Of a stretch of DNA of 64,000 nucleotides, positions 11,143-33,763 are shown piece by piece. A program made the translations under genes and the position numbers. Position 1 is the first letter of the stretch; each line of letters opens with the position of its first letter. The DNA comes from an uncultured Chloroflexia bacterium (lineage in GTDB: Bacteria; Chloroflexota; Limnocylindria; Limnocylindrales; CSP1-4), in the NCBI GenBank assembly GCA_963752475.1, contig CAVVYR010000008.1, forward strand, positions 96,001-160,000, written 5' to 3'. The notes beneath the pieces were generated by a model. The model worked only from the letters and a program-made list of their open reading frames with translations. It made no database searches and was not told the origin of the DNA.

Positions 11143-11346
11143 GGGTCGATGATAGGGCGCCCATGGGAACGTCTTCACGTGCGCTCGCCGGCGGTACCAA
11201 GAGGCGGTTCGTGGCAGATAGGACTAGTACTGATGGGCCCCTCCCATCTGCCCTCCACTACACCGAACATGAGCCGAGCAAGCCCACCGTACGGGACCCG
11301 AACCGATTCGCATGCACCCTCACCGGCACGTGCACGAGCTCGCGCG

Positions 11347-13950: not shown

Positions 13951-15459
13951 CTACAGCTGCCGGGTGATCGGCGCGACCGCCGGGTAGACCTCTCGATAGC
14001 GTTCGTACAGTTCCGAGTAGGCCGCATGGCGCTTGGCGTCGGGCTCGAATGTGCGGGTCAGCTCGAGGAACCGCTCGGCTCCTTCGGCTGCCGACGACCA
14101 CAGCCCGACACCGGCACCAGCCAGCAGCGCCGCACCGAAGGCCGCCGCCTCGGTGATACGCGGCGTGATGACGGGGATGCCCGTGATGTCCGCCTTCAGC
14201 TGCAACCACAGCTCGGAGCGCGCACCGCCGCCGATGGCTCGCAGCACATCGATGGCCACTCCCCCATCGCGCAACAGATCGAGGTTCAGCCGCAACTCGT
14301 AGGTCAGGCCCTCGAGGATGGCTTTGGCCAGGTCCGTCCGCGTCGTCGAGAAGGTGAGTCCAAGGATGGCGCCCTTCGACGCCGTGTCGAAGGTAGGCGT
14401 GCCAGCGCCCGCGAAGTGCGGCAGTACGAGCAGCCCCGTCGGATCGGCCGCCGCCCCACCCAGGATCAGGTCGTAGGCATCGTCGCCTGACTCGGTCGCT
14501 CGCGCCACTTGCGGTTCGCAGAAGCCGTCCCGGAACCAGCGCAGCGCCAGCCCGCCACTGTGGTTGAGCGCCATCGCCAGGAACAGCTCCGGCACGGTCG
14601 CGCGGTAGACGCTGATGTTCCCCTCGTACAACGGCGTCGTGACCACCGGCGACCCGAGCGCCACCTCGACCACCTCGGCCGTGCCGGTCGAGACCATCGT
14701 CAGCCCCGGCTCCGTCAGCCCCACGCCCAGCGCGCCACAGGCCTGATCGTGACCACCGGTCACGATCCCGGGTGCCGCTGACAGTCTGAGTCGTTCGGTC
14801 AGCTCGCCGCTGAGCCGGCCGACCATCGTGCCCGAGGGCACGACCTCGGCAAGACGGTCGGGCTCGAGCTCCAGGACGTCGAGGATCTCGGCCGACCAGC
14901 TCCCCGCCTCCAAGTCGAACGCCTGCGTCCGTGACGCGAGACAGGAGCTGATGGCGGGCTTGCCGGTCATGCGCGCGATGAGGAAGTCCTCGACCAGCAG
15001 GAAGCGATCGGCCGCAGCCCATACGTCCGGCTCGTGCTCGCGGATCCAGAGCAGCTTGGGCAGCGTGTTGACGGTGTGGATGGGCATGCCCGTGCGCTCG
15101 AACAGCGCCTGCGCCCCAAACCGCTCGCGCAGCCAGGCGTTCTGGGCGTCGGTGCGCGTGTCCATGCCCAGGATCGTCGGGCGCAGCGGCCGCAACGAGG
15201 CGTCGACCGGCGTCACCGCCTCGCCATGGACGGAGAGCCCGATGGCGGCCACCTCACGCACAGCAGCAGCGGCGATCGCCTCCTCCATCGACGCGAGCGC
15301 CAGATCCCAGACGGCCTCGATGTCCTGTTCCGCCCAGCTCGGATGCGGCAGGTCCACGGGATACTCTCGCGACGCTGCCGCCAGGAGCGACCCGTCCTCG
15401 TCGAAGACGACGGCCTTGCAGCCGGTAGTGCCGACGTCGAGCCCGATGAGTGAGCTCAA
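13951..15459 (-). CDS. FGGY family carbohydrate kinase (xylulokinase-like)
   Basis: IGLDVGTTGCK, GGHDQACGALG, STGT, AILEG and GGGARS motifs. Confidence 0.92.
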   Translation of the reverse strand: MSSLIGLDVGTTGCKAVVFDEDGSLLAAASREYPVDLPHPSWAEQDIEAVWDLALASMEEAIAAAAVREVAAIGLSVHGEAVTPVDASLRPLRPTILGMDTRTDAQNAWLRERFGAQALFERTGMPIHTVNTLPKLLWIREHEPDVWAAADRFLLVEDFLIARMTGKPAISSCLASRTQAFDLEAGSWSAEILDVLELEPDRLAEVVPSGTMVGRLSGELTERLRLSAAPGIVTGGHDQACGALGVGLTEPGLTMVSTGTAEVVEVALGSPVVTTPLYEGNISVYRATVPELFLAMALNHSGGLALRWFRDGFCEPQVARATESGDDAYDLILGGAAADPTGLLVLPHFAGAGTPTFDTASKGAILGLTFSTTRTDLAKAILEGLTYELRLNLDLLRDGGVAIDVLRAIGGGARSELWLQLKADITGIPVITPRITEAAAFGAALLAGAGVGLWSSAAEGAERFLELTRTFEPDAKRHAAYSELYERYREVYPAVAPITRQL

Positions 15460-16595
15460 ACCGCGACCGCTCCGTGTGCAAGCGCCGCCTGGTACATGAC
15501 CTCGATACGGTCAGGTGAGACGTCCGGCTGGATGTTGTGGGCGGCGCAGAACACGTAGCCACCGCCACGACCCAGCGTCTCGATGCTGTAGTCGACCTCG
15601 CGCCTGATCTCGTCGTGCGTCGCGGTCGGCAGCACCTGCTGCACGTCGATGCCGCCACCCCAGAAGGCCAGCTCGGAGCCGAACTGCTGCTTCATCTGCG
15701 CGATGTCCATCTTGGCCGCGCTGCGCTGGATGGGGTTGAGCGCATCGACGCCGCACTCGATGAGGTCCGGGATCAGATCGAAGACCGAGCCGCACGAGTG
15801 CATGAAGACCTTCGCGTCGGTCTTGGAGTGGATGAAATCGTAGAGCTCCTTGAGGTACGGCTTGACGTCCTTGCGGAACATCTCAGGCGCTGTCCAGGTG
15901 GCCTTCTGCGTGCCCAGGTCGTCTCCCTGGGCCACCACCTGCACGTACGGTTCCACCTGCTGCAGGAAGAGGTCCCACAGCTGGATATCCGTCTGGGTGA
16001 TCTTGTCGAGGATGGCGTGGGCCATGTCACGGTTCCAGTAGAGGTCCATGCAGAACTGCTCATAGCCGCGCATGAAGCAGGCGCCCTCGAACGGACCCAG
16101 GCACATGATGTCGGCCACGACGGCGTAGTCGGTCTCCTCGTACAGCCGCTTCGCGTCCTCGCGCACTCCGGCCACTCGGCCGGGGTCGTACGGATCGGGC
16201 CACTGCACCGAATCGAGGTCGCTGGGTCGCTCCAGATCGGCAAAGGGCCGTTCGACCACGTCGTAGTAGAACGAGGCCTTCTGCCAGGTCAGGTCGTACT
16301 CGTCGACGAAGCGGTCGCCGGGCAACTCCCTGGTCTCGAAGGCCCAGGGGCCCTTGAGGTACACGGCCCGAGCGTCCACGTCGTAGCGCTGGAGCAGGTC
16401 CCCGCGCGGGTAGACGGTGTCCATCTGGCGGTGGGAGATGTCGGGCTCGGGATCGGGCGGCAGGCCCAGGTGCTCGAGCAGGTTCTGATAGGCGATGCGG
16501 GTGGCTGTCGTGACGATGGTCGAACCGAGGTCGATCGGCACCCGATCGGTCTGCTGATGGTTCAGCGCAGCCACGACACGCTCTCGGTGATTCAC
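15456..16595 (-). CDS. Uroporphyrinogen decarboxylase / MtaA-CmuA methyltransferase superfamily protein
   Basis: RERVVAALNH..DRVPIDLG, GDDLG, FMHSCG, FWGGGID and HNIQPDV motifs. Confidence 0.85.
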   Translation of the reverse strand: MNHRERVVAALNHQQTDRVPIDLGSTIVTTATRIAYQNLLEHLGLPPDPEPDISHRQMDTVYPRGDLLQRYDVDARAVYLKGPWAFETRELPGDRFVDEYDLTWQKASFYYDVVERPFADLERPSDLDSVQWPDPYDPGRVAGVREDAKRLYEETDYAVVADIMCLGPFEGACFMRGYEQFCMDLYWNRDMAHAILDKITQTDIQLWDLFLQQVEPYVQVVAQGDDLGTQKATWTAPEMFRKDVKPYLKELYDFIHSKTDAKVFMHSCGSVFDLIPDLIECGVDALNPIQRSAAKMDIAQMKQQFGSELAFWGGGIDVQQVLPTATHDEIRREVDYSIETLGRGGGYVFCAAHNIQPDVSPDRIEVMYQAALAHGAVAV

Positions 16596-16646
16596 GTCAC
16601 TCCTCCTCGAGTGCTCGCTTTCCCTCTCGACCCGCCCGCGCCGCCG

Positions 16647-17666
16647 TTAGGACGGTGCGGGCGCGGGTTTCGCTTCTGGTGGGCCCGAATCCCCCTTGTC
16701 GACGCGGATGTTGCGACGCTCCAGGCGGGTGATGAGGCGCATGCGCTGGGCGTCCACGAGGACCGCGAAGAAGATGACCGCCGCTGCGACCATGTCCTGC
16801 AGATAGATGTCGATCTGCAGGTAGACCAGGCCGGTATTGATCATCTGCACCAGCAGTACGCCGATGACGGTGCCGGGGAAGACCGCGCCCACGCCACCGA
16901 AGAGGCTGGTACCGCCGAGCACGGCGGCGGCGATGGCCCGGAACTCGGTACCCTCGCCGATACCAGCGCTCACGCTGCCCTGCTGGCTCATGGCGATGAC
17001 GCCGGCCAACGAGGCACAGAAGCCGCTGATGACGTAGACCGAGCCGGTCAGGCGGATGACGTTGAGACCGGCCTTCTTGGCCGCCTCGAGGTCGTTGCCC
17101 ATGGCGTAGATCTGGCGGCCCATGGCCGTGTAGCGCAGGAAGACCACGGCCACCGCCACGACCACGGCGAAGACCCAGATCGGAACCGGGATGCCCAGGA
17201 AGTCCACGTTGGCGTAGTTCATCTCCGGCGGCAGGATGAACTGGCGCGATTCGGTCAGCAGCAGGCCGATGCCACGCCCGACGGTGAGGGTAGCGAGGGT
17301 GGCCACGAATGGCACCAGGCCAACCTTGGCGATGAGGAAGGCGTTGACGAAGCCCCAGGCGGTGCCGGCCACGATGCCGCAGGGGATGGCGATGAAGTGC
17401 GAGACGTCCTGCTGCAGCAGGGTGCCGATGACGGCCGCGGTGATGTACATCGTGGCACCGACCGAGAGGTCGATACCACCAGTCAGCAGCACCACCGTCA
17501 TGCCCACCGCCAGCAGGCCTACGAAGGCCGCCGACTCGGTGATGTTGGAGAGGTTGCCCAGCGACAGGAATCGCTCGTCGAGCACACTCAGCAACACGAA
17601 CACGACGACGAACAAGATCGCCGGGAAGTTGCGCAGGATCGGCATGGTGAAGCGGTTGCTGGTCAT
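16647..17666 (-). CDS. Monosaccharide ABC transporter permease (RbsC-like)
   Basis: GGIDLSVG, PFVATL, GRQIYAMGND and IAAAVLGGTSLFGG motifs. Confidence 0.92.
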   Translation of the reverse strand: MTSNRFTMPILRNFPAILFVVVFVLLSVLDERFLSLGNLSNITESAAFVGLLAVGMTVVLLTGGIDLSVGATMYITAAVIGTLLQQDVSHFIAIPCGIVAGTAWGFVNAFLIAKVGLVPFVATLATLTVGRGIGLLLTESRQFILPPEMNYANVDFLGIPVPIWVFAVVVAVAVVFLRYTAMGRQIYAMGNDLEAAKKAGLNVIRLTGSVYVISGFCASLAGVIAMSQQGSVSAGIGEGTEFRAIAAAVLGGTSLFGGVGAVFPGTVIGVLLVQMINTGLVYLQIDIYLQDMVAAAVIFFAVLVDAQRMRLITRLERRNIRVDKGDSGPPEAKPAPAPS

Positions 17667-19174
17667 GCCACCTGCTCCCTGAAGGCCGTGCGCAGGATGG
17701 CCTCCTGGTCGAAGTCGGCCCTGTCGAACGCGCCCAGGACCTCACCCTGGCCCATCACCAGGATGCGGTCACACATGCCCGTCAACTCCTCGATCTCCGA
17801 CGAGATGAAGAGCACTGCCGTACCCCTTGCCGCGATCTGGTCGATGATCTCGTAGATCTCGTACTTGGCACCCACGTCGACGCCACGGGTGGGCTCGTCG
17901 ATGATGAGGATGGAAGGCTCGGTCATGAGCCACTTGCCCAGGACCACCTTCTGCTGGTTGCCGCCCGAGAGGCCCTTGGCCTCGTTGCGGAAGGCGTCGT
18001 TGACCTTGATCGAGAGGACCTCGACGGTCTCCTTGACGGCCTTGGCCACCTGGCTCGTTTTGATGCGCTTGACCCAGCGGCTCGTGTACTCGGGCAGGGC
18101 CGCGAGGGACAGGTTGTCGGAGACCATGGCCTCCATCATCAGGCCCTCCTCGCGCCGGTTCTCGGTCACGAAGGCCATCCCGCCGCGGATGTTCGAGCCG
18201 GGGGACAACTGCTTGACGGGCTGGCCGTCGATCAGCACCTCGCCCTCGTCGAAATCCTCCAGGCCGAAGATGATCTGGGCCAGCTCCGAGCGACCCGAGC
18301 CCATGAGGCCGAAGACGCCCAGGACCTCGCCCTTGTGCAGCTGAAGGTCGATCTGGTGGCTGATGCCGGCCTTGGACAGGTTCCGGACCTCCAGCATGAG
18401 GTCCTCGGTCGGCGGAGCCGAGCGCTCGGGATAGAGGTTCTCGATGTCGCGGCCGACCATCGAGCTGATCATGCGGTCGACGGTGAACTCGTCCTTGGGG
18501 CCGTGGGTCACGAGGCTGCCGTCGCGCAGGACGGCGATGGCGTCGGAGATCCGCATGACGTCGCCGAGGATGTGACTGATGTAGATGATCGTCTTGCCGT
18601 CGTCGTGGAGCCGGCCGATGAGCTCGAAGAGTCGCTCGGTCTCACGCGCGGTCAGTGACGTCGTGGGCTCATCGAAGATGATGATGCCCGCGTCCATGGA
18701 GAGCGCCTTGGCCACCTCCACCAGCTGTCGCTCGCCCGGAGTCAGGCGCTCCACGCGCATATCTGGCGAGACCTCGAGATCCACCTGGCCAAGGAACTCG
18801 CGGGCCCGGTTGCTGAGGTCTCGTCGATTGAGCAGGGGCAGGCCGCCAGTGGTCGGGAAGTCGTTGATGAAGAAGTTCTCGGCGATGGTCAGGTTGGTGA
18901 AGAGGTTCAGCTCCTGGTGGATGAAGGCGATGCCGGCCTCGTCGGCGACCTTGGGGTCGTGTGGCCGGTAGGCCTCGCCGTTGAGCAGCATCTGCCCCGA
19001 CGTGGGCGGCACCACCCCGCCGAGGATGTTCATCAGCGTCGACTTGCCGGCCCCGTTCTCGCCCACCAGGCCGACCGTCGTGCCTCGCTCGATGTCCAGG
19101 TCGATGGCCTTGAGCACCGGCACGCCGAAGAACGACTTGTGGATGTCCTTGAACTGCAGGATCAGATCACTCAT
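17663..19174 (-). CDS. Monosaccharide ABC transporter ATP-binding protein (RbsA-like, two NBDs)
   Basis: GENGAGKST, FDEPT, LSGGNQQK and DEPTRGVDVGAK motifs. Confidence 0.95.
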   Translation of the reverse strand: MSDLILQFKDIHKSFFGVPVLKAIDLDIERGTTVGLVGENGAGKSTLMNILGGVVPPTSGQMLLNGEAYRPHDPKVADEAGIAFIHQELNLFTNLTIAENFFINDFPTTGGLPLLNRRDLSNRAREFLGQVDLEVSPDMRVERLTPGERQLVEVAKALSMDAGIIIFDEPTTSLTARETERLFELIGRLHDDGKTIIYISHILGDVMRISDAIAVLRDGSLVTHGPKDEFTVDRMISSMVGRDIENLYPERSAPPTEDLMLEVRNLSKAGISHQIDLQLHKGEVLGVFGLMGSGRSELAQIIFGLEDFDEGEVLIDGQPVKQLSPGSNIRGGMAFVTENRREEGLMMEAMVSDNLSLAALPEYTSRWVKRIKTSQVAKAVKETVEVLSIKVNDAFRNEAKGLSGGNQQKVVLGKWLMTEPSILIIDEPTRGVDVGAKYEIYEIIDQIAARGTAVLFISSEIEELTGMCDRILVMGQGEVLGAFDRADFDQEAILRTAFREQVA

Positions 19175-19183
19175 GGTCGCCCC

Positions 19184-20278
19184 CTACACCTGCTGCAGCG
19201 CAAGGCGCCGGCGCACGACATCGAGCAGTGCAGCCAGCAGGATGACCGAGCCCTTGACGATGCCGATGTAGAAGTACGGCACGTTGAGCAGAGATAGCGC
19301 GTTGTTCAGCAAGATCAGGAAGACGACGCCGAAGAAGGTCCACATGATCTTGCCGCGACCACCGGCCAGGCTGGTGCCGCCGATGACGACCGCGGCGATG
19401 ATGTCGAGCAACAGCGTCTCGCCCATGGTCGGGCGGCCCTGCTCGACCCGGGCCGTGTAGATGACCGAGGCCGCAGCCGCGCAGAAGCTGCTGAACATGT
19501 AAGTGGCGACGATCACCTTCTTGACCGGCACGCCCGAGACGACGGCCGCACGCGGGTTGTTGCCGATGCCGTAGAGCCAGCGTCCGAATAACCCGCGGCT
19601 CAGCACGTAGTGCGCCACGACGGCGATGCTGATGGCGATGACCATGGCGATCGAGAAGAACGTGAAATCGTCGTTGAAGAACGCGAACTCCTCGCCGATG
19701 GCGCTGAAGGCGTCGGGCAGGTCGATGATGTTCTCGCTCTTGGTCAGGTAGATCGCGAGCGCGGCCACGAACATCGAGGTCACCAACGTGACCATGAACG
19801 GTGGGATCCGCGCGAAGGCGACGGCACTGCCGTTGAAGGCGCCGATGAGCAGGCCCACCAGGAGCATGGCGATGATGGCCACGGGGATGCCGATGACGGT
19901 ATCGCTGAGGATGGCTCCGTCCTCGAAGAGCATGGTCCCGAGGAGCGGGCTGCGCCTGAAGACGATGGGGTTCGCGGACTCCGCGATGAAGGCCGCGCCG
20001 ACGACGCTGGTCAGCGAGACGACCGCACCCTGCGAGAGGTCGATGCCGGCGATGATGAGCACGAAGGTCTGCCCTACCGCCAGCACCAGCAGCGGCCACA
20101 TATTGGAGAGCAGGTTGCCGATGTTGTAGGGCGTGGCCACGGTCGGTGAGACCAGGTACAGCCCGACGAACATGGCGATGCAGAGATAGAGGATCAGGAA
20201 CTCCGACATCAGGACGCGCTTGCTGAACGCGACAGCGCGATCGAGTGCGGAGTCCTGTGTCGGTGCTGCGGCCGTCAT
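19184..20278 (-). CDS. Monosaccharide ABC transporter permease
   Basis: AGIDLSQG, PPFMVTL and IAAVVIGGTSLAGG motifs. Confidence 0.92.
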   Translation of the reverse strand: MTAAAPTQDSALDRAVAFSKRVLMSEFLILYLCIAMFVGLYLVSPTVATPYNIGNLLSNMWPLLVLAVGQTFVLIIAGIDLSQGAVVSLTSVVGAAFIAESANPIVFRRSPLLGTMLFEDGAILSDTVIGIPVAIIAMLLVGLLIGAFNGSAVAFARIPPFMVTLVTSMFVAALAIYLTKSENIIDLPDAFSAIGEEFAFFNDDFTFFSIAMVIAISIAVVAHYVLSRGLFGRWLYGIGNNPRAAVVSGVPVKKVIVATYMFSSFCAAAASVIYTARVEQGRPTMGETLLLDIIAAVVIGGTSLAGGRGKIMWTFFGVVFLILLNNALSLLNVPYFYIGIVKGSVILLAALLDVVRRRLALQQV

Positions 20279-20414
20279 CCGTCGCGGCCTCTGCCGGTGG
20301 TCATCGCCTGGCTCATCGCGTCCTGTGTGAGGTGGTGGAAGTGGCGGGCCCCGTCAAGCGAGGCCCGCGGCGCGGAGGAGCGGATCGGCTCCGCCCCTCC
20401 CCGTCATGGATCGA

Positions 20415-21428: not shown

Positions 21429-21505
21429 TCCTGATGTCTCCTCCAGATCAGTGATGTAGACGTCTACTGACTCTCCCTTTGCGCCTTCAGCACCTCCTGT
21501 CTTCG

Positions 21506-22918: not shown

Positions 22919-22942
22919 GTCCTTCTCCTCCTTGACTCTCTG

Positions 22943-24289
22943 TCAGTCGGTTGCCAGCTGGTCGATGGCAGACAGCAACTCAGGCTCGGCGATCGATCCG
23001 TCCGACCACTGGTCCTGCAGTTGCCGCAGGCTGTACACGGTGGACGGCCTGATCTCGACGTCGGTGGTGGTGATGGGCGTGTCCATGGTCACCGGACGGA
23101 TCACCTTTGCGCCGTTCGCGAGGCCGATGGGCAGCAGTCCCTCGTCACGTGCGGTCTGGTACGTGTCGATCAGGCTGTAGTAGGCGGTGCCACCGATGGC
23201 GTCGAGCGTGTCTCCAGGGACCAGGTCGCGCTTGGCGACGGCGAAGACCTCCGAGGCCAGTCGGTCCAGCGGGACCATGTTCGACTGGCGACGGATGGCC
23301 AGCATCGCGCAGGTCAACGGGACTTCGATGCTGCACAGGTGGAAGGGGCGGAAGAGCGTGTAGTAGGGCCCGTCGCCCATGTCGCGCAGGACCATCGCCT
23401 CACGCAGGCGCGGGTGATCGGTGTGCACGATGAGGAAGACGCCAGGGGCGACCGCCCCGATGCCGTAGTCGACGACGCCCATCTGACCCAGCACGCCGCC
23501 ATCCTCGGTCAGGCGGAAGACCTCGTGGAGGTGGTCGCGGTCGGTCTCCGGGCCGTGCATGCCGCGGATGTCGGGGATCAGGCCGGTGGCGTTCGACACC
23601 GCGGCCATCTCGATCATCGTCTTGGAGCCGTCCACGAACTCGACCAGCATGTTGGGCGAGAGTCCACGTCGGGCGGCCTCGGCCTGGACCGCCGGGTCGG
23701 CCGGCGTGGAGTGGCGGTCGAGCGGGTTGTTCTTGCCCTTGCCTGCGGCCACGATGGTGAAGCCCATCGACTGGGCCAGGTCATAGAGCTCCATGCAGGC
23801 GGCCGGCTCGTCACCCGCGGCGAGCGCGTAGAGCACGCCCTTCTGCACCGCGTACCAGTGCAGCAGTGGGCCTACGGTGATGTCGGTCTCGACGTTCATC
23901 ATGGCCAGGTCCTGGCCGCTCCGCGCCGAGAGCAGGGCGGCGCGGGTGCCCACCTCGGGCACGCCGGTCGACTCGAGCATGACGTCGATCGAGCGCATGG
24001 CCGTGACCACGCGGTAGTCGGGCACGGCCACGTACTTGCCGGCCTCGACCGCGGCGTCGGCCTCTGCCGCGGTCTCGGCGGTCACGACCTCACCCTCGAC
24101 CTGGCCGATACGGTAGGCGTCACGCGCCCGTTCGATGTCAAGGTCCGCGGTGACGACCACGCGCAAGCCCTGCATCTCCTGGGCCGTGGCCACGACGTCA
24201 GTGCCCATCTGGCCGGCACCCACGAGCCCGACGCGGACGGGTCTGCCCTCTGCCTCACGCTGCTGCAGCTCTGCGTTCAGTCCGATCAT
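22943..24289 (-). CDS. DRL/DXR-II-like NAD(P)H oxidoreductase with C-terminal SAF domain (paralog 1)
   Basis: VGLVGAGQMG, MMNVETD, AGDEP, GKGKNN, MLVEFVDGSKTMIEMAA, GMHGP and RPFHL match the Brucella abortus DRL pattern as I recall it. Confidence 0.85.
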   Translation of the reverse strand: MIGLNAELQQREAEGRPVRVGLVGAGQMGTDVVATAQEMQGLRVVVTADLDIERARDAYRIGQVEGEVVTAETAAEADAAVEAGKYVAVPDYRVVTAMRSIDVMLESTGVPEVGTRAALLSARSGQDLAMMNVETDITVGPLLHWYAVQKGVLYALAAGDEPAACMELYDLAQSMGFTIVAAGKGKNNPLDRHSTPADPAVQAEAARRGLSPNMLVEFVDGSKTMIEMAAVSNATGLIPDIRGMHGPETDRDHLHEVFRLTEDGGVLGQMGVVDYGIGAVAPGVFLIVHTDHPRLREAMVLRDMGDGPYYTLFRPFHLCSIEVPLTCAMLAIRRQSNMVPLDRLASEVFAVAKRDLVPGDTLDAIGGTAYYSLIDTYQTARDEGLLPIGLANGAKVIRPVTMDTPITTTDVEIRPSTVYSLRQLQDQWSDGSIAEPELLSAIDQLATD

Positions 24290-24290
24290 G

Positions 24291-25346
24291 TCAGGCCAGT
24301 CCTTCCTGTCCGATCTCGACCATGACCTTGAGCGCCTCCCCTGCCGCGACCGTGCGGAAGACCTGCTCGGCCTGGTCGAGGGGGAAGCTGTGGGTGATGA
24401 TCGCGTCGGGGTCGATCTGGCCCCGCTCCAGCAGCTGCAACGCTTGTCGGTGGTAGTCGGGGTGGTAGCTGAAGGAGCCGATGACGCGGATCTCGTCGTA
24501 GTGGATCCGATTGGCGTGGAGCTCGGTCATGGGCGCGGCCTTGGGCAGGCCACCGAAGAGGACCACAGCGCCCTTCTTGCGCACCGCGTCGACGGCCTGC
24601 TGATGGGTCGCGGCGACGGGGTTGGCACAGATGGCGCTGTCCGCCCCAAGCCCGCCGGTGAACGCCTTGGTCTCCGCCACCACGTCCTGGCTGAACGGGT
24701 CCAGCACGAGATCGGGCTTGAACGGCGCGGCCATCTCGCGGCGCAGCTCGTTAGGTTCGCTAAGGATGACGCGCGCACCCCGGAGGTGAGCGATGGCGGT
24801 ATGCAGGCAACCGATGGGTCCGGCACCCATGACCAGCACGGTGTCGCCCAGCTTGGTGCCGATGTCCTGGTGGCAGGCCTGGACGGAGCTGAGCGGCTCG
24901 CCCAGCGCGCCCTGTGCCCAGCTCAGCGAAGCGGGCATCTTGTGGATGGTGCCGCCCGCGAGCGCGTGCGCCGGTAGCAGGCAGTACTCGGCCAGCCCGC
25001 CCATGAAGCCGGGCGTGATGCCGATCATGGTCATGTCGTCGCAGAGGTTGTAGAGCCCCACGCTGCAGTACCAGCACTTCAGGCAGTGAACGTCTGGCGC
25101 TACGGCAAGGTGATCGCCCACGGCGTAGTCGGTGACCTGGGCGCCGACCTCCGCGACCTCACCGGCGAACTCGTGGCCGGGGACGGTGATGCCGCCTCCC
25201 ACGGGGCCTTCCTTGTAGCGGCGCAGGTCGGAACCACAGACGCCACAGGCACGCACGCGCAGCAGCACGCCGTCCTCGGGGGGTTCCGGGACGGGCACGT
25301 CGACCAGCTCGATGGTCTCGGGGCCGGTCAGCTGAGCGGCTTTCAC
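24291..25346 (-). CDS. Zn-dependent polyol dehydrogenase (sorbitol/L-iditol 2-dehydrogenase-like)
   Basis: CGSD, GHE, CLKCWYC..NLC and GAGPIG motifs. Confidence 0.9.
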   Translation of the reverse strand: MKAAQLTGPETIELVDVPVPEPPEDGVLLRVRACGVCGSDLRRYKEGPVGGGITVPGHEFAGEVAEVGAQVTDYAVGDHLAVAPDVHCLKCWYCSVGLYNLCDDMTMIGITPGFMGGLAEYCLLPAHALAGGTIHKMPASLSWAQGALGEPLSSVQACHQDIGTKLGDTVLVMGAGPIGCLHTAIAHLRGARVILSEPNELRREMAAPFKPDLVLDPFSQDVVAETKAFTGGLGADSAICANPVAATHQQAVDAVRKKGAVVLFGGLPKAAPMTELHANRIHYDEIRVIGSFSYHPDYHRQALQLLERGQIDPDAIITHSFPLDQAEQVFRTVAAGEALKVMVEIGQEGLA

Positions 25347-25951
25347 TTGGCGTCGTTCTCCTTGATCTTGTGGCCGACGGCACCGCCGGGATGGGTCTCA
25401 CCGAAGTCGTCGATGGTGTAGCCGCGGACCTCGAGGAGCGCCACGCAGATGGCGTCACAGAGCGCGGAGTTGAAGAGCGAGCTGCCGGTGGCGACCATGC
25501 CGAAGGGATCGACGCCCTCGGGTGCGGTCACGTGCAGCACGACGTCGGCCAACTGACCCAGGCTGGACCCGGGCTGCTCCGTGATGGCCACGACCATGGC
25601 GCCGCGCTTCCTGGCGATGCCGGCGAGGAAGATGACCTCTGTCGTCTCGCCACCCTTCGACAGGCCGACCCAGACATCGCCCTCGGCCACGGCACCGGCC
25701 GCGCCGTGCTGGCTGTCACCGGGGTGCAGGAAGAGCGCAGGGGTGCCGACGCAGGAGAGCAGGTGGGCGAAGCGCAACGCCACCGCGTGCGAGGTGCCCG
25801 AGCCGGAAACGAGGACCTTACCCTCGCACTCGAGCATGGCCTGCACGACGGCCTCGAAGCTATCGTCGAGCTGCTCGGCGACCGAGGCCACGGCCGCGCT
25901 CTCGCGCTCGATGACCTCGACACCCAATCGGCGGATCGCAGCGGCGTCCAT
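25343..25951 (-). CDS. SIS-domain sugar-phosphate isomerase (KdsD/GutQ-like, no CBS pair)
   Basis: VSGSGTS, FLHPGDSQHG, LSKGGETTE and HPGGAVG motifs. Confidence 0.82.
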   Translation of the reverse strand: MDAAAIRRLGVEVIERESAAVASVAEQLDDSFEAVVQAMLECEGKVLVSGSGTSHAVALRFAHLLSCVGTPALFLHPGDSQHGAAGAVAEGDVWVGLSKGGETTEVIFLAGIARKRGAMVVAITEQPGSSLGQLADVVLHVTAPEGVDPFGMVATGSSLFNSALCDAICVALLEVRGYTIDDFGETHPGGAVGHKIKENDAK

Positions 25952-26913: not shown

Positions 26914-26918
26914 CACTC

Positions 26919-26983
26919 TGAGAGAATTCCCACACGTGAGAATATTCTCAGGGAGGCTAGCACGCGAGCGGAAGCGGAGTCAA
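26919..26983 (-). promoter_or_regulatory. Sigma70-type promoter TTGACT-N18-TAGCCT with two tandem palindromic operators
   Basis: -35 at 26978-26983, -10 at 26954-26959; perfect palindrome TGAGAATATTCTCA at 26937-26950; imperfect TGAGAGAATTCCCACA at 26919-26934. Confidence 0.75.
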
Positions 26984-27017
26984 CCGATTCCGCAAACGAA
27001 TGCATGAACGCTGATCC

Positions 27018-27938
27018 CTACCAACCAGCGCCCGGGATGGCATAGCCATTGGGGTACTCGGGGCTGAGCTGCCAGGCAGCGATCCGCTCGGCCAGCTTGA
27101 GCACCGCGATCCCGTCCTCGGCAGAGCGGTCCGAAGAGGGCACCATGGGCGCGCTCTCGATGGTGCAGTAGCCCTCGTAGCCGGTCTTGAGGAAGGCGCG
27201 CATGACCGCCGTCCAGTCGGTCTTGCCGTAGCCGGGCGTGAGCGAGTTGGAGTCACGGAAGTGCCCGTGCCAGAGGTAGGGCTGCGCATCCATGACCGCC
27301 TCGTACGAGCCCAGCTCCTCGAGGTTGACGTGGAAGAAGTCGAGCTGGATGCCGATGTTGTCGCGACCGGTGAGCTCGATGACGCGCTTGTGGTTGGAGG
27401 CGGTGTTGACGAACTTGCCCATCTCCAGGTGGTTCGTGGCCTCGAAGACGAGTCTCATGTCGCGGGTCTTGGCATGGTCGCTCATGGCGCGCAGCGACTC
27501 GACAGCCACGGCCGTGGCGTCGTCGACGTTCTCCGCGGTGATGGGCGCGTGGACGGCCGTGGCCAGCGTCACGGACTTGGCGCCCAGCTCGGCGGCGAAG
27601 TCGATGGACTCCACCGTCTCGCTCACGGCCAGTGCGGCAGTCTTGGGCTCGGTCAGCGTCTTGTAGTCAGGGGAGAAGGGGTCCCACATCTCACCCCAGC
27701 ACTCGTTGACGTTGGAGACGTCCAGCCCGAAGTCGGCCTTGAGCTGCTTGTGCGTGGCGAGGTAGTCCTCCATCGAGACGCCCATGCCGTAGCGGCCCTT
27801 GGGCGGGCAGACCTCGATGGCGTCGTAGCCACAGCGGCTGAGCCGTTCGTAGGTCACCTCCGGGTGCAGGTAGGCCTCCTCCTGTCCGAATGTCAGCTGG
27901 AAGTAGCTGTACTTCTGCGGTGCGAAGTCTGTGGACAC
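27018..27938 (-). CDS. TIM-barrel sugar isomerase/epimerase (D-psicose/D-tagatose 3-epimerase-like)
   Basis: FEATNHLE, LDFFHVNLEE, HFRDSN..PGYG and TIES metal-site pattern. Confidence 0.85.
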   Translation of the reverse strand: MSTDFAPQKYSYFQLTFGQEEAYLHPEVTYERLSRCGYDAIEVCPPKGRYGMGVSMEDYLATHKQLKADFGLDVSNVNECWGEMWDPFSPDYKTLTEPKTAALAVSETVESIDFAAELGAKSVTLATAVHAPITAENVDDATAVAVESLRAMSDHAKTRDMRLVFEATNHLEMGKFVNTASNHKRVIELTGRDNIGIQLDFFHVNLEELGSYEAVMDAQPYLWHGHFRDSNSLTPGYGKTDWTAVMRAFLKTGYEGYCTIESAPMVPSSDRSAEDGIAVLKLAERIAAWQLSPEYPNGYAIPGAGW

Positions 27939-27971
27939 TGGTTCCCCTCCTCCTCGTTGCCCTTGGCTCGT

Positions 27972-28517
27972 TCAGTCCTCGGGCGGGTAGACCTTCTCCG
28001 GTGGGTGGCGGCGCGCCGGCCGCTGGATGAGCTCGATGGTCACGCCGTACACCGCTTCGGTATCGATGTAGGCGTAGTGGCCGTCGCCGTCGGGCCCGAA
28101 GCCGGAACCGTCCATGATCATCCGGAAGCCGGCGGCCTCGGCCTGGGCCAGGGCCTCGCTCATGTCGTCGACGAGCACACCCAGATGCTGGACGCCGAAG
28201 CCGTGCTCCTTGACGAAGTCGGCGTAGACCGTGGGGCCCTCGACCATCTCGATGAACTCCACACGCATGGACCCGAAGTAGGACAACGCCACGCGCATGC
28301 GGTATTCGCAGGGCTGGCCGTAGTACGACATCCGCTGGCACAGGCCAGTGCCGTAGGTGTAGAAGTGCCAGCCACCGATGCCGAAGGCGCGGTGGTACAT
28401 CTCGACCGTCTTGTCGAGGTCCTCGACCACGAAGGCGATCTGGGCGATGCCATCGTCGAGGAACGGCAGTGGCGCCTCTGGCTTGGAGCGCAGCTCGGGT
28501 GTGTCGGCGGCGCTCAT
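27972..28517 (-). CDS. VOC family protein (methylmalonyl-CoA epimerase/glyoxalase-like)
   Basis: IAQIAFVVEDL, VEFIE, GVQHLG and TIELI motifs. Confidence 0.85.
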   Translation of the reverse strand: MSAADTPELRSKPEAPLPFLDDGIAQIAFVVEDLDKTVEMYHRAFGIGGWHFYTYGTGLCQRMSYYGQPCEYRMRVALSYFGSMRVEFIEMVEGPTVYADFVKEHGFGVQHLGVLVDDMSEALAQAEAAGFRMIMDGSGFGPDGDGHYAYIDTEAVYGVTIELIQRPARRHPPEKVYPPED

Positions 28518-29800
28518 GCGTAGAGGGCGTCCTGCAGGCGCCGGAGTCGGGCGACGAAGGTCGATTCATCGACCGTGACGTCCTCGTCGGTGATGGTCGC
28601 GCCCTTGGCGATGGGCCGCTTGACGACGGCGTTCGCGCCGATCCCGATGGGCACGGCGCCGGCGGTTCGCGCCTCCTGGTAGGTCATCAGCACCCCGTAC
28701 CAGTCGGGCCCGCCGATGCCCTCGAGGGTGGCCCCGGGCTCGAGGTCCCGCTTGGCCGTGCACACGACCTCGCTGTGCATCTGCTCGGGCGTGACCGTGA
28801 CCTCGTCGAGCAGCACGGCTTCGGCCACCGACTGCGGCGTCTCGAGGTCGCACAGGTGGTAGGGCCGGAAGTGCAGGTAGTAGGGCCCGTCCGCGTAGGT
28901 GATGAACTTCATCTCCTTGCGGATGCGCTTGTCGTACGAACGCACCACGGCGAAGACACCGGGTGCGATGGGGCCGGTGGAGTAGTCCACGCAGCCGGCC
29001 TTCGAGAGGATGCCGCCATCGGCCTCGGGGATGAAGGTGCTGACCAGGTCGTCGTGCTCGATGAAGGGCCCGTGCATGCCCGGGACGTCCGGCACGAGGC
29101 CGGTCGCGTTGGACACCGCGGCCATCTCCACCATCGTCTTGGTGCCGTCCTTGAAGGCGCTCAGCATCTTGGGGTTCATGCCCTTGCTCGCGGCCTCCGC
29201 GACACAGGCTTCGGGGGTGGCGGCAAGATCGATGGTGTTGTTCTTGCCCTTGCCCAGGGTCACGACCTCGAAGCCCATGAGCAGCGCCTGCTCCCAGAGC
29301 ATCTTGAGCACGCCGGGCTCGTCGCCCGAGGCCACGGTGTAGACCGAGCCCATCTGGCGCGCGAGACGGTCGAGATAGACGCCGATGGTGATGTCGGTCT
29401 CGACGTTCATCATGATCACGGGCACCCGATTCATGATCGCGTCATGGGCCACGCGAGCACCGACGTCCGGCACGCCGGTGACCTCGACGATGGCCTCCAG
29501 GCCCTCGAGTCGCGGCATCGCAAGCGCATCGGGTGTGACCATCGCGCGGCCGGCGCGGATGCCGTCCTCGACCGCGCCCAGGTCCTCGGCCACCTCGATG
29601 TCCCCGGCCTCGCGACCCATGTCAGCGAAGGTGGTCAGGCCGCGCTGCGGATCGAGGTCGGCGATGGCCGCGACGCGCATGCCCTCGATGTTGTTGATGG
29701 CGTGCGCCAGGCCCGAGCCCATCTGGCCGCAGCCAACGATGCCGATGCGGATGGGATCGCCGTCGGCTTCGCGTTGCCTGAGCTTGCTAACGAGCTCCAC
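28514..29800 (-). CDS. DRL/DXR-II-like NAD(P)H oxidoreductase with SAF domain (paralog 2)
   Basis: IGIVGCGQMG, MMNVETD, SGDEP, GKGKNN, FKDGTKTMVEMAA and RPYHL motifs; CAGGAG RBS before GTG. Confidence 0.85.
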   Translation of the reverse strand: MELVSKLRQREADGDPIRIGIVGCGQMGSGLAHAINNIEGMRVAAIADLDPQRGLTTFADMGREAGDIEVAEDLGAVEDGIRAGRAMVTPDALAMPRLEGLEAIVEVTGVPDVGARVAHDAIMNRVPVIMMNVETDITIGVYLDRLARQMGSVYTVASGDEPGVLKMLWEQALLMGFEVVTLGKGKNNTIDLAATPEACVAEAASKGMNPKMLSAFKDGTKTMVEMAAVSNATGLVPDVPGMHGPFIEHDDLVSTFIPEADGGILSKAGCVDYSTGPIAPGVFAVVRSYDKRIRKEMKFITYADGPYYLHFRPYHLCDLETPQSVAEAVLLDEVTVTPEQMHSEVVCTAKRDLEPGATLEGIGGPDWYGVLMTYQEARTAGAVPIGIGANAVVKRPIAKGATITDEDVTVDESTFVARLRRLQDALYA

Positions 29801-29816
29801 GTCTAACTCCTGTCTG

Positions 29817-31376
29817 TCATGCCGACTGTCTCGCGCGCAGGCGGGCCAGCTCGACGAAGTCCCCCTTGAGGTCCTGGTAGACCTGCTTGAAGAGGGCGAA
29901 CCGTTCCATGTACGCCGCGTGGGCCTCGGGGTCAGGCTCCATGGGCTCGATCGTGGTGGCCCAACCCTTGGCCACCGAGAAGTCGGGGAAGACGCCCGTC
30001 GCGACACCGGCCAGGATGGCGTCGCCGTAGGGCGCGCCGGTACGGCGCTCGAGCAGGACCGTGCCCACGTCGAAGACGTCGGTGATGATCCGCCGCCAGA
30101 GCAGGGACTTGGCGCCACCCTCGTTGAGCACGAGCGGGTAGTTCACCGTCAGGCCGGCAGCGCTGAGGGTCTCGAACGAGTGGTAGAGCGCGAAGGCCAC
30201 GCCCTCCATGGCCGCGCGGACGACGTGGCCCTTGCTGTGGTTGAGCGACAGGCCGAAGATGACGCCACGGGCGTTGACGTCCCAGATGGGCGTGCGTTCG
30301 CCCATGAGATAGGGCAGGAACAGCAGCCCGTCAGCGCCCGCCGGCACCGCCGCGGCCTGCTGGTTGAGCACGTCGTAGACGTCAGGCCCACCGGCCGCCT
30401 CCTGCTCCAGCTCGAGGGCGCTGAACTCGTCGCGCAGGTAGCGCAGCGTCTGACCGCCAGTGGTCGTGGTCGGCACCGTGATGTACGTGTCGTGCGAGTC
30501 GACGGTGTAGGGGAAGTTGATCGAGGCCGCGCCCGACTCGCTGAAGAGGAATTCTCGTGAGCGGTGGATGATGCCGAAGTTGCCGGCCGTACCCAGGTTC
30601 ATCTGGATGTCGCCGGGCTCGATGGCACCGCCCTGCATCCAACCGGCGTTGCAGTCGACCTGTCCGCCCGCGACCGGTGTGCCCGAGGCCAGGCCGCATT
30701 CAGCGGCGGCGGCACCGGTGATCTCGCCGATGACGTCCTCGCAGCGGCAGAGCTCGGGCATCAGCGCCGGATCGAGGCCCATCTCCTCGAGCAGGTCGGT
30801 ATCGAAGCGCTGGTCGAGGATGTCGTAGACACCGAAGAACGGCGCCGCGCTGTAGTGCGCGGTCGAACGGCCGGTGAGCTTGAAGTTGATGAAGCCGTCG
30901 ATGGTCAGGACCTTGGCCACGGTCGCGAAACGCTCCGGGTGGTGGTTCCGCTCCCAGAGCAGGTTCATCACCGCGGGGTGATCCTCGAGGCGGTTGGCGG
31001 TGATCCTGAAGATGCGCTCGGCGCCGATGTTCTCGGTGACCCAGGCGACCTCTTCGGTGGCCCGGCGGTCCATGAGGTTGTATGCACGCGGCAGCGGCTC
31101 CCCGTCACCATCGACGAGGACGACCGAGGGGAGCGCGGAGGAGGTGGCCACGCCCCGGATCTCGGCCGGGTCCACACCGGTGTCGGTGAGGACCTTTCGA
31201 ACCATGCGGCAGAAGGCTTCCCAGTAGCGGGGCGCATCATGCTCGGACCAACCCGAACGCTCGGTGTGGATCGGGTACTCCTCGTAGGCGTACCCGAGCT
31301 GCTCGCCCGACGAGTCGATGAGTGCGATCTTGGCACCGCCGGTGCCGTAGTCCGCGCCCAGCAGATAGTCAGCCAT
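29817..31376 (-). CDS. FGGY family carbohydrate kinase
   Basis: [30 protein letters not shown] and GGAKS motifs. Confidence 0.92.
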
Positions 31377-31391
31377 TCGTGACAGTCATCG

Positions 31392-31459
31392 TGTGAGAAT
31401 TCTCTCGCTCTTGAGAAATTTCTCATACGACGCTAGCATGCTGCTCGGGTCCGAGTCAA
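31392..31459 (-). promoter_or_regulatory. Sigma70-type promoter TTGACT-N18-TAGCGT with two tandem palindromic operators
   Basis: -35 at 31454-31459, -10 at 31430-31435; perfect palindrome TGAGAAATTTCTCA at 31412-31425; TGTGAGAATTCTCTCG at 31392-31407. Confidence 0.75.
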
Positions 31460-31613
31460 CGGCTCGGACGCACAAACCCTCGTCGTGCGCGGCGGTTCAG
31501 GGCTCGCTCGGTGGCTACTGACGGGTCGCCTGGCCGTGGCGTTCGCTACGAGAAGTCGTTGACACGGGCGTGCTCGATCGCCGCCCAGTGCCATCCGGGA
31601 AAGGATGATCCAC

Positions 31614-32177
31614 ATGAAGACCGCCAAGGACAAGCATGTCGTGATGGCCGCCGACTTCGCCGGCTATCCGCTGCAGCAAGCTGTCAAGGAGTACCTCCAG
31701 AACAACGGCTGGACCGTCGAGGACCTCACTCCGGTGAAGGACGAGATCCCCATGTTCCACCGCGTCGGATTCATGCTCGGCGCGAAGATCGCCGAGAAGG
31801 AGTACGAGAAGGGCCTCCTCTTCTGCGGCACCGGCATGGGCATCCACCTCGCCGCGGCCAAGGTGCCGCACGTGCACGCCGCCGTCTGCGAAAGCGTGCG
31901 CGCGGCCAAGCGCTGCGCCACCGGCAACAAGTGCAACGTCATGGCCATGGGCGCGCTGTGGATCGCACCGAACCTGGGCTTCGCCATGGCCGACGCCTTC
32001 CTCCAGGGTGAGTTCTGCGAGGGCTACGAGGACTGGGAAGGCTTCTACGAGTGGCACGAGATCGGCTACCAGGAGATCGACAACTTCGACTACGAGGCCT
32101 TCAAGGCGAGTGGCTTCAAGATCGTCGATGAGCCGCGCGTCGAAATGGCCCCCTGGCCCAAGGACCTGCCCTACTAG
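31614..32177 (+). CDS. RpiB/LacA/LacB family sugar-phosphate isomerase
   Basis: AADFAG, FCGTGMG and NKCNVMAMGA motifs. Confidence 0.85.
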   Translation: MKTAKDKHVVMAADFAGYPLQQAVKEYLQNNGWTVEDLTPVKDEIPMFHRVGFMLGAKIAEKEYEKGLLFCGTGMGIHLAAAKVPHVHAAVCESVRAAKRCATGNKCNVMAMGALWIAPNLGFAMADAFLQGEFCEGYEDWEGFYEWHEIGYQEIDNFDYEAFKASGFKIVDEPRVEMAPWPKDLPY

Positions 32178-32227: not shown

Positions 32228-32253
32228 GCGGGGCGTCTCGCATGACGCCCCGC
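32228..32253 (+). terminator. GC-rich hairpin after the rpiB-like gene
   Basis: GCGGGGCGTC-6 nt-GACGCCCCGC. Confidence 0.45.
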
Positions 32254-32367
32254 GACGACTCGACCGCGCAGGGGCGCGCCGCAGTCGAACCAAAGGCGCT
32301 TCGACCCGCCCGCCCGGATCCATCGGCCTCATCGTCAGGCGCGGGCGTGCCCCACACTGCACAGACC

Positions 32368-33588: not shown

Positions 33589-33763
33589 TGGCTGGGCCCG
33601 GCAGCCTGAGCCGATCAGCTCACCTCGAGGGGAGCGGCAGCCTCGGCCTGGGCCCGGCAGCCTGAGCCGCTGGCTGCGCCCGGCAGCCTAGCCGCTGGCT
33701 GGGCCCGGCAGCCTGAGCCGCTCAGCCCACCTCGAGGGGAGCCGCGGCTTCGGCCTGGGCCCG
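33589..33763. repeat. 68-bp imperfect direct repeat duplicating the MFS gene 3' end, plus ~25-bp GGCTGGGCCCGGCAGCCTGAGCCG units
   Basis: Copies at 33589-33656 and 33696-33763, 5 mismatches. Confidence 0.8.

Follow-up and report, generated by a model that had tools for sequence, protein, structure and literature searches.

Here we report that a 15-gene cluster from an uncultured Chloroflexia bacterium, found in a 64,000-nucleotide stretch of its genome (the window), most likely encodes SorC-controlled import and breakdown of a branched plant sugar, with D-apiose taken up as the free sugar. Two of its genes, DRL1 and DRL2, encode paralogous NAD(P) oxidoreductases of the DXR-II/DRL family. In print, DXR-II is an alternative isoprenoid enzyme that converts DXP (1-deoxy-D-xylulose 5-phosphate) into branched MEP (2-C-methyl-D-erythritol 4-phosphate). 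Judged from sequence and gene context, we put the probability at roughly 0.55 that the cluster specifies an undescribed D-apiose route, in which a DRL would rearrange a branched polyol phosphate into a linear pentulose phosphate. The core of the system is formed by four proteins that travel together in many phyla, namely a single-domain SIS phosphosugar isomerase, a zinc medium-chain dehydrogenase (Zn-ADH), DRL1 and a xylulokinase-like FGGY kinase (FGGY_A). The original prediction for this stretch, made by a model from the sequence alone, had proposed that the two DRL genes belong to a catabolic pathway for branched sugars or polyols, and the comparative evidence supports the catabolic role.

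Scanning one genome for each prokaryote species yielded 478 relatives, of which the best 80 loci were retained. The window proteins were placed on these loci by tblastn; 51 of them have at least 4 kb of flank on both sides of the DRL gene. SIS, Zn-ADH and FGGY_A are all present with the DRL in 48 of the 51 well-flanked loci (the exceptions are L019, L065 and L070), and the carriers of the full set represent seven named phyla. Cultured bacteria with the module include Ornatilinea apprima P3M-1, Blautia schinkii DSM 10518 and Dorea sp. D27. Over all 80 loci, the SIS gene is found in 73, Zn-ADH in 74, FGGY_A in 67, a FucI-like isomerase in 56, the SorC regulator in 42 and the sugar-binding protein in 41. 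The gene order is likewise preserved: Zn-ADH lies immediately upstream of the DRL in 72/80 loci, and FGGY_A, present in 49 of the 51 well-flanked loci, follows directly after the DRL in many of them. The FucI-like isomerase occurs in 42 of the 51, and the importer genes keep the identical order elsewhere (binding protein, permease, ATPase, permease). In three loci (L009:14079-16061, L026:5507-7825 and L055:11504-13576) the module's binding protein consists of two such units fused in tandem, 661-773 aa in all.

By their sequences, both paralogs are DXR-II-type proteins and probably not members of the DLO families. Each covers the full 164-position PF21135 profile, and they are the only PF21135 genes of the host genome. 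The SAF domain of DRL1 scores above the Pfam cut-off, and that of DRL2 is a 22-residue stretch only, just past the cut-off. Both align end to end with the Brucella DRL (DRL1 with PDB entry 3UPL, E = 2.5e-113; DRL2 with 3UPY, E = 2.1e-92), including the C-terminal domain up to about residue 434. DRL1 and DRL2 share 44% identity, and DRL1 bears a C-terminal extension of about 20 residues. The motifs GDEP, GKGKNN, KTMxEM and RPxHL, which the original prediction had listed as kept together with the SAF domain, show no variation in our alignment A1; the SAF part of that statement holds in full for DRL1 and partially for DRL2. In the portion of the 2013 family survey available, K191, K193 and T229 are named as fosmidomycin/substrate anchors, and G121, T229, H250 and R320 as the residues distinguishing DXR-II from the DLO1 and DLO2 families, which are inactive (PMC3847144, Carretero-Paulet et al. 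2013). DRL1 and DRL2 keep all of them. In an alignment of 99 family members (97 ingroup and two DLO-like sequences), K191, K193, T229, H250 and R320 are invariant in 97/97 ingroup sequences and G121 is kept in 95/97. The motif positions E168, N194, N195, K228, E232 and H323, which that portion of the survey does not name, are likewise invariant in the ingroup. The two DLO-like plasmid proteins deviate at E168, K193, N194, N195 and T229; more distant DLO-like proteins adjoin TRAP transporters.

The same alignment was used for a quick maximum-likelihood tree, rooted on the two long-branched DLO-like sequences with DLO1 absent. The 97 ingroup rows, among them the NGR234 and Listeria sequences that appear in the 2013 DXR-II list as far as it is available (PMC3847144), separate from the two DLO-like rows with 96% support in the Shimodaira-Hasegawa-like approximate likelihood ratio test (SH-aLRT), a value that comes from a quick search with long outgroup branches and no DLO1 anchor. 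DRL1 falls in a 52-row clade (99% SH-aLRT) of Chloroflexota, Planctomycetota, Verrucomicrobiota and Bacteroidota, the four phyla in which its orthologs of 65-90% identity occur. A 24-row clade holds sequences from Bacillota, Spirochaetota, Verrucomicrobiota, Synergistota, Calditrichota and Anaeromyxobacter, and an alphaproteobacterial clade holds Terrarubrum, Aminobacter and Sinorhizobium fredii NGR234. A 17-row clade joins a 14-row Chloroflexota DRL2 clade with the DRLs of Listeria and Ligilactobacillus that are linked to a phosphotransferase system (PTS). By this placement DRL2 is an old, separate lineage grouping with the PTS-linked DRLs. One long-branched Chloroflexota sequence (L055) stands outside every clade, and branching among the ingroup clades is not resolved.

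The DRLs very probably serve sugar catabolism and not isoprenoid synthesis. A canonical DXR-I gene adjoins ispG elsewhere in the genome (contig 7, C7:566388), and contig 14 (C14) carries dxs and ispH; ispD, ispE and ispF were not searched for. The statement of the original prediction that the window contains no gene of the MEP pathway thus holds for dxs, dxr-I, ispG and ispH, all on other contigs. Because these ordinary genes are present, neither DRL is the sole housekeeping DXR, a case that the original prediction had itself named as fatal to its proposal. DXR-I was also found in 4/5 other genomes that carry the module.

An apiose/apiitol type of substrate gains independent support, at the level of protein families, from apiosidase-like neighbours of the module. 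For this survey, open reading frames (ORFs) of the 80 loci that are non-homologous to window genes were clustered and representatives scanned against Pfam. The recurring neighbours are M24/creatinase-like proteins (17 loci), an RpiR regulator (16 loci) and proteins with PF13204, the 'Apiosidase-like catalytic domain' (15/80 loci in several phyla, inside or within about 10 kb of the module). All ten Pfam-scanned members of the last cluster are PF13204 proteins (E = 3.6e-18 to 1.9e-120); the five unscanned members comprise two end-of-locus fragments and three proteins sharing 80-93% identity with a scanned member. Two architectures occur, DUF5060 followed by the apiosidase domain and the apiosidase domain followed by Collagen_bind_2. 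In the PDB, 8T9W (deposited as 'Apiosidase') matches best, ahead of 4QFU and then 3KZS/5MSY. As a separate observation, an MttB-family methyltransferase (L023:15158-16615, also in L027 and L058) and the M24/creatinase-like ORFs (representative L027:16406-17668) recur near the module in Anaerolineae and Bacillota, and these genes may form a separate adjacent operon.

In four Planctomycetota loci the PF13204 gene follows the last importer gene and precedes SIS, all on the same strand; it lies immediately upstream of SIS in two Bacillota loci (L077 and L073) and within the importer genes in L026. It is the only PF13204 gene of its genome in 3/5 genomes checked (those of L077, L073 and L026, 2.9 to 5.6 Mb), the remaining two genomes having 7 and 9 matches. 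The binding-protein orthologs that share an operon with the apiosidase-like gene in Planctomycetota are 48-57% identical to the protein of the window. Besides the importer, the only enzymes of the Planctomycetota string are the hydrolase, SIS, Zn-ADH, DRL and the FGGY kinase. The DRL is the sole branch-resolving candidate among them, since carbon-skeleton rearrangement is not known from the families of the other members. The Bacillota locus L077 also holds two oligosaccharide-type permeases, another glycoside hydrolase and an NAD epimerase. Among the substrate classes that the original prediction had offered, apiose/apiitol is thus the one favoured by these neighbours; hamamelose finds no support, and methylerythritol suits the Rhizobiales loci described below better than this cluster.

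The following route is proposed. The ABC importer would take up D-apiose, which would be converted to its ketose form either by the FucI-like isomerase, with the free sugar as substrate, or by SIS once the sugar has been phosphorylated. The Zn-ADH would then reduce the ketose to apiitol (or its phosphate), and the kinase would phosphorylate it to the 2-C-hydroxymethyl analogue of methylerythritol 4-phosphate; apiitol 1-phosphate is MEP with a hydroxymethyl group replacing the methyl group. DRL1 would run the DXR reaction in reverse: the branch hydroxymethyl group would be oxidised to an aldehyde with NAD(P)+, and the skeleton rearranged by retro-aldol and aldol steps to xylulose 5-phosphate or ribulose 5-phosphate, which would join the pentose phosphate pathway. 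Redox would be balanced, with one reduction offset by one oxidation. The end point fits the presence of RpiB, found in the window and inside the module in L059 and L069, of Rpe in 5/80 loci, and of fsa and tkt in Ligilactobacillus. In a variant of the route the kinase would act first on apiose, placing the phosphate on a branch carbon and giving a pentulose 1-phosphate, cleavable to dihydroxyacetone phosphate and glycolaldehyde.

The partner proteins are compatible with these assignments. None of the 10 cluster proteins scanned reached an NCBIfam equivalog cut-off. The top PDB match of Zn-ADH is 4EJ6, an unnamed zinc dehydrogenase; its nearest solved relatives further comprise threonine dehydrogenases, the ketose reductase 1E3J, sorbitol dehydrogenase and L-arabinitol 4-dehydrogenase, and because of these named relatives the enzyme most likely interconverts a 2-ketose and a polyol. 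An aldose-ketose isomerase would then be needed first. The SIS protein matches KdsD with 143 bits across profile positions 13-202 (below the NCBIfam cut-off), and in the PDB matches 3FXA (1.9e-36) and the arabinose-5-phosphate isomerase 2XHZ (5.6e-27); its candidacy for the first step fits this likeness to the arabinose-5-phosphate isomerase domain. For the FucI-like protein, a PDB sequence search gave no match. FGGY_A reaches 343 bits and FGGY_B 290 bits against XylB, both under the cut-off of 380, and FGGY_A matches the xylulokinase 2ITM with an E-value of 4.9e-61. The binding protein was modelled with a pLDDT of 88.8 from an alignment (49.8 from the single sequence). Its top fold match is 4RY0 (Rhizobium etli RHE_PF00037), a protein that has reportedly also been solved with apiose (5IBQ). 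Several ribose binders score equally with 4RY0, however, and fold comparison is therefore uninformative about the ligand.

The second unit of the cluster (FGGY_B, DRL2, a VOC protein and an AP_endonuc_2 TIM barrel) is a Chloroflexota-only add-on that may, speculatively, handle a related branched polyol or the other phosphate isomer, followed by epimerisation. DRL2 homologs are found in 14/80 loci, all of them Chloroflexota, and are accompanied by VOC homologs (15/80 loci), the VOC gene adjoining DRL2 in the DRL2-holding loci. In L024 and L042 the DRL2 unit is joined directly onto the DRL1 unit. FGGY_B homologs occur in 21/80 loci and the TIM barrel in just 3/80. The TIM barrel has weak NCBIfam matches to the IolO epimerase and psicose 3-epimerase, all under the cut-off; its family includes ketose and ketose-phosphate 3-epimerases. 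Homologs of the URO-D/MtaA-like protein are lineage-specific (12/80 loci), and it gives weak MtaA/CmuA matches in NCBIfam, under the cut-off. Its substrate might, speculatively, be a sugar carrying a methyl or carboxyl group.

In the neighbourhood survey suggested with the original prediction, the gene directly preceding the DRL in other contexts belongs to a polyol kinase or PTS. In an Agrobacterium plasmid (L084) and in pNGR234b of NGR234 (L089), genes for SorC, an ABC importer, a PfkB kinase and the DRL are followed by E1-alpha, E1-beta, E2 and E3 genes of the 2-oxoacid-dehydrogenase type; the Agrobacterium record, the only annotated one of the two, adds LipA, and two related records annotate the E2 as acetoin dehydrogenase E2. 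In Aminobacter (L087) the DRL is followed by E1-alpha, E1-beta and E2, and in a Terrarubrum plasmid (L088) a glucitol-type PTS with GutM, PtsP and SorC faces the DRL, E1-alpha, E1-beta and E2. A kinase and ABC importer before the DRL, or a glucitol-type PTS facing it, are thus found in 3/4 Rhizobiales records. Listeria monocytogenes (L085) has SorC, DRL, GutM and glucitol-type PTS IIA/IIB/IIC in one string, and a Ligilactobacillus salivarius plasmid (L086) has the Listeria-type DRL/PTS string followed by fsa and tkt. The DRL is the next gene wherever uptake yields a polyol phosphate, which fits a polyol phosphate, as MEP is, as the DRL substrate. From the Rhizobiales arrangement we infer a full 2-C-methyl-D-erythritol route, in which a kinase or PTS would give MEP, the DRL would convert it to DXP, and an acetoin-dehydrogenase-like split would yield acetyl-CoA and glyceraldehyde 3-phosphate. 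The sorbitol PTS reportedly brings methylerythritol into Salmonella. Two Pelolinea-like genomes carry homologs of the Agrobacterium DRL-linked E1 about 9 kb downstream of a DRL1-type module (E1-alpha with 48-49% identity in L022, from 9879 onward, and in L030, 19132-21000; E1-beta with 52% in L030 only).

Several points weigh against the apiose route. It is built wholly from sequence and gene context, and every step of it is conditional. The host genome contains no PF13204 gene (at 88.8% completeness), so the link to apiose is borrowed from orthologous modules and the host would import free sugar released by others; 65/80 loci show no apiosidase-like gene in reach. PF13204 has few characterised members, and some of the neighbours may cut other sugars. 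By its predicted structure, the binding protein appears as close to ribose binders as to 4RY0. The SIS protein would have no necessary role if reductase and kinase act on the free sugar; the phosphate on a branch carbon that the kinase-first variant implies would fit the DXR-II phosphate site less well and give a pentulose 1-phosphate, an alternative that class II aldolases in about 9 loci would suit. The E1 genes near the module in L022 and L030 hint that some modules may yield a methyl ketone such as DXP. Finally, the tree is a quick one with two long outgroup branches, and its anchors verified by name are limited to NGR234 and Listeria from the 2013 list.

An alternative reading is that the cluster serves an ordinary linear pentose or pentitol (of the arabinose, arabitol, xylitol or ribitol type) or a tetritol, with the DRLs as plain polyol-phosphate dehydrogenases and the DXR reaction a side activity of some members. 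The parts do resemble those of pentitol and pentose routes (xylulokinase-like, FucI-like, sorbitol-dehydrogenase-like and KdsD-like proteins, RpiB, and Rpe in relatives), ribose binders predominate among the closest fold matches of the binding protein, and the erythritol genes comprise SorC, an FGGY kinase, a TIM barrel and RpiB. In addition, the E. coli glucitol operon, in its generally known order, has sorbitol-6-phosphate dehydrogenase at the place that the DRL holds in the Listeria operon. However, the known routes for such linear sugars have no need of a DRL or of a second redox enzyme, whereas the DRL is the fixed centre of the module (48/51 loci). The invariance of the DXR-II substrate residues in 97 proteins of several phyla argues for a conserved and demanding chemistry, the apiosidase neighbours would be unaccounted for, and Pfam finds no EryB-type dehydrogenase among the cluster proteins. 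We therefore regard a linear substrate as rather unlikely.

Degradation or salvage of 2-C-methyl-D-erythritol or 1-deoxy-D-xylulose is unlikely. Here a kinase would make MEP or DXP, the DRLs would interconvert the two, and the product would go to isoprenoids or be degraded. FGGY_A is xylulokinase-like, and E. coli xylulokinase phosphorylates deoxyxylulose. In the Rhizobiales, the DXR-II gene has a kinase or PTS on one side and, on the other, an acetoin-dehydrogenase-like complex that could split DXP, and the E1 homologs of L022 and L030 lie near a module like the present one. The substrate-anchoring residues are wholly retained, and the conversion of DXP to MEP is the sole activity demonstrated for the family, in the available portion of the 2013 survey (PMC3847144). 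On the other side, the window and most module loci lack a 2-oxoacid-dehydrogenase-like complex or another evident outlet for DXP, the apiosidase-like hydrolases, aldose isomerase and ketose reductase would be left without explanation, and an inducible 15-gene cluster would hardly be needed for salvage in a genome already having dxs and dxr-I. That one DRL is a back-up or fosmidomycin-tolerant DXR which merely happens to be located in a sugar cluster is highly improbable. The same portion of the survey reports that DXR-II proteins complement dxr mutants and that many bacteria hold both types, and proposes reduced fosmidomycin sensitivity as a possible advantage (PMC3847144). But both DRL genes are tightly packed in same-strand catabolic operons (gaps of 1 to 24 nt or overlapping stops), identical neighbours recur across phyla, and dxs, dxr-I, ispG and ispH are not nearby.

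The window has a G+C content of 68% and lies on contig 8 of a host genome of 4.25 Mb in 38 contigs. The cluster comprises 15 minus-strand genes, from 31376 down to 13951, with spacings from a 4-nt overlap to a gap of 136 nt, and an RpiB gene that is divergent from FGGY_B across a 228-nt spacer. They are listed below in order of transcription, with order and identities assigned by Pfam. This assignment bears out the inventory of the original prediction, namely two DRL paralogs, an ABC importer, four isomerase- or epimerase-type proteins, a polyol dehydrogenase, a VOC protein and a SorC regulator. The idea that each DRL has its own FGGY kinase alongside stands for DRL2, which adjoins FGGY_B; the neighbour of DRL1 is the FucI-like isomerase, and its kinase, FGGY_A, lies at the far end of the string. 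An ORF at 16597-17745 proved to be a frame artefact, the real gene being the second permease in another frame.

Table. Genes of the cluster in order of transcription, with coordinates in the window and domain matches (Pfam E-values)
Order	Gene product	Position	Strand	Domain matches and remarks
1	FGGY_B, FGGY-family sugar/polyol kinase, 519 aa	29817..31376	-	FGGY_N 1.6e-44, FGGY_C 7.4e-23; opens the string, 16 nt upstream of DRL2
2	DRL2, DXR-II/DRL-family NAD(P) oxidoreductase, 428 aa	28514..29800	-	PF21135 7e-59, partial SAF 3.1e-4
3	VOC/glyoxalase-fold protein, 181 aa	27972..28517	-	Glyoxalase_4 5.4e-18; 4-nt overlap with DRL2 stop
4	Xylose-isomerase-like TIM barrel (AP_endonuc_2)	27018..27938	-	PF01261 4.8e-30; candidate ketose or ketose-phosphate epimerase/isomerase
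5	SorC-family sugar-binding transcription regulator, 321 aa	25951..26916	-	Sugar-bind PF04198 1.9e-70 and N-terminal HTH
6	Single-domain SIS phosphosugar isomerase, KdsD/GutQ catalytic-domain-like, 202 aa	25343..25951	-	SIS 9.9e-19
7	Zn-ADH, zinc medium-chain dehydrogenase, polyol/ketose-reductase type, 351 aa	24291..25346	-	ADH_N and ADH_zinc_N; stop 1 nt from DRL1 start
8	DRL1, DXR-II/DRL-family NAD(P) oxidoreductase, 448 aa	22943..24289	-	PF21135 1.7e-63, SAF 1.5e-5
9	L-fucose/L-arabinose-isomerase-superfamily (FucI-like) protein, 470 aa	21506..22918	-	Fucose_iso_C (FucI_C) 2.5e-28; candidate aldose-ketose isomerase, free sugar
10	Periplasmic sugar-binding protein, ribose-binding-protein type, 337 aa	20415..21428	-	Peripla_BP_4 9.4e-37
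11	ABC permease	19184..20278	-	BPD_transp_2 1.7e-34
12	ABC ATPase	17663..19174	-	ABC_tran 4.7e-54
13	Second ABC permease	16647..17666	-	BPD_transp_2 3.9e-39
14	URO-D/MtaA-like protein, 379 aa	15456..16595	-	URO-D 9.2e-31; between importer and FGGY_A
15	FGGY_A, xylulokinase-like FGGY kinase, 502 aa	13951..15459	-	FGGY_N 1.9e-57, FGGY_C 4.5e-34
	RpiB/LacAB-family sugar-phosphate isomerase, 190 aa	31605..32177	+	LacAB_rpiB 3.8e-30

Contigs from RNA libraries (3 runs, 3 studies) are 99-100% identical to parts of the cluster, although such libraries can contain DNA and contigs are no demonstration of transcripts. Two of them, from different studies, cross gene junctions: 24178-24456 spans Zn-ADH/DRL1 with 0 differences and 25030-25415 spans SIS/Zn-ADH with 2 differences. 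These matches are only a hint that the cluster genes are expressed in nature. On the RpiB side, the cluster is flanked by a formate/nitrite-family transporter (32242-33258, plus strand), an identity that corrects the earlier one, and by an MFS transporter (33722-35011, minus strand). Beyond FGGY_A, an ORF of 1014 aa (10903-13947, plus strand) combines a double zinc ribbon with a region of proline-rich acidic repeats, and the 12-14 kb bin of the window has the top G+C content (0.729) and a strong AT skew (0.454).

The described DXR-II enzymes of the 3UPL/3UPY type share with the present proteins the same Pfam catalytic and SAF domains, a full-length identity of about 45-50% as estimated by eye, and identical anchoring residues. 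They differ in acting biosynthetically from DXP to MEP, whereas the genes described here lie in a sugar-import catabolic cluster of a genome that has DXR-I; we propose the oxidative direction and a hydroxymethyl-branched substrate, and DRL1 has its C-terminal extension. Our literature search, which left most subscription journals outside its coverage, found no catabolic role for DXR-II/DRL and no apiitol-based route. In the portion available, the 2013 survey calls the persistence of DXR-II beside DXR-I unexplained (PMC3847144). A catabolic function, if true, would simply answer why many bacteria keep a second DXR.

According to the available part of a 2026 paper, the known bacterial routes for D-apiose or D-apionate number four, one using transketolase and three oxidative ones via ApnO, and no additional route has been characterised since 2018 (PMC13753588). 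There ApnO is described as having a ketol-acid-reductoisomerase-like (KARI-like) fold and apionate as its substrate, and is called the only reductoisomerase-type enzyme acting in catabolism. As far as that part describes it, ApnO resembles the proposed DRL reaction in that an NAD-dependent oxidation is coupled to migration of the hydroxymethyl-bearing carbon, turning the branched apiose skeleton into a linear one, and in clustering with a binding-protein importer (PMC13753588). It differs in acting on a sugar acid and in its fold, which is unrelated to that of DRL and excludes ApnO as a DRL relative. The transketolase route (isomerase, apulose kinase, split transketolase) also starts with isomerase (aldose-ketose) and kinase steps, is without net oxidation and leads to central sugar phosphates; the module, however, is without transketolase, and its branch would be resolved by reduction and DRL oxidoisomerisation. 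Lactonase, DUF1537-kinase and RuBisCO-like domains and a split transketolase are absent from the cluster proteins and the Pfam-scanned recurring neighbours, ApnO itself not having been searched for; DUF1537 (PF07005) is present in 1/5 genomes checked. Altogether, it is possible, at somewhat less than even odds, that the DXR-II family consists at its root of catabolic branched-polyol-phosphate oxidoisomerases, with one branch forming a fifth D-apiose route, the Rhizobiales branch breaking down plant 2-C-methyl-D-erythritol, and the isoprenoid role, in bacteria from which DXR-I has been lost, being a later borrowing.

The glucitol (gut/srl) operons, as generally known, are alike in combining a regulator of the SorC/SrlR type with a polyol-phosphate dehydrogenase step and a SIS isomerase resembling KdsD; their GutQ is an arabinose-5-phosphate-isomerase paralog of unclear purpose. 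They differ in using a PTS where the present cluster has an ABC importer and an FGGY kinase, and in having a short-chain sorbitol-6-phosphate dehydrogenase that the DRL here replaces. Of an erythritol/threitol-type set, the cluster has the kinase, TIM barrel, RpiB and SorC, and Pfam detects in it no EryB-type FAD polyol-phosphate dehydrogenase. Further apiose routes are to be expected, given that fungi grow on apiose without the known bacterial enzymes, according to the available part of a 2026 preprint on rhamnogalacturonan II. If the proposed route is true, a second, unrelated enzyme family straightens branched sugars, and the pectin sugar D-apiose gains a further, widespread breakdown route in anaerobes of sediment, soil and gut. 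Five or more gene families, present in very many genomes and without a name in NCBIfam, would also gain one. Apiose-grown Aerobacter aerogenes is reported in old work to possess an apiose 1-reductase (EC 1.1.1.114), which reduces apiose to apiitol; we know of no gene or onward pathway assigned to it. This apiose-induced reduction matches the proposed first redox step, except that the zinc enzyme described here is ketose-reductase-like and not aldose-reductase-like, and the module, if our reading is true, would supply a candidate gene for the old orphan activity.

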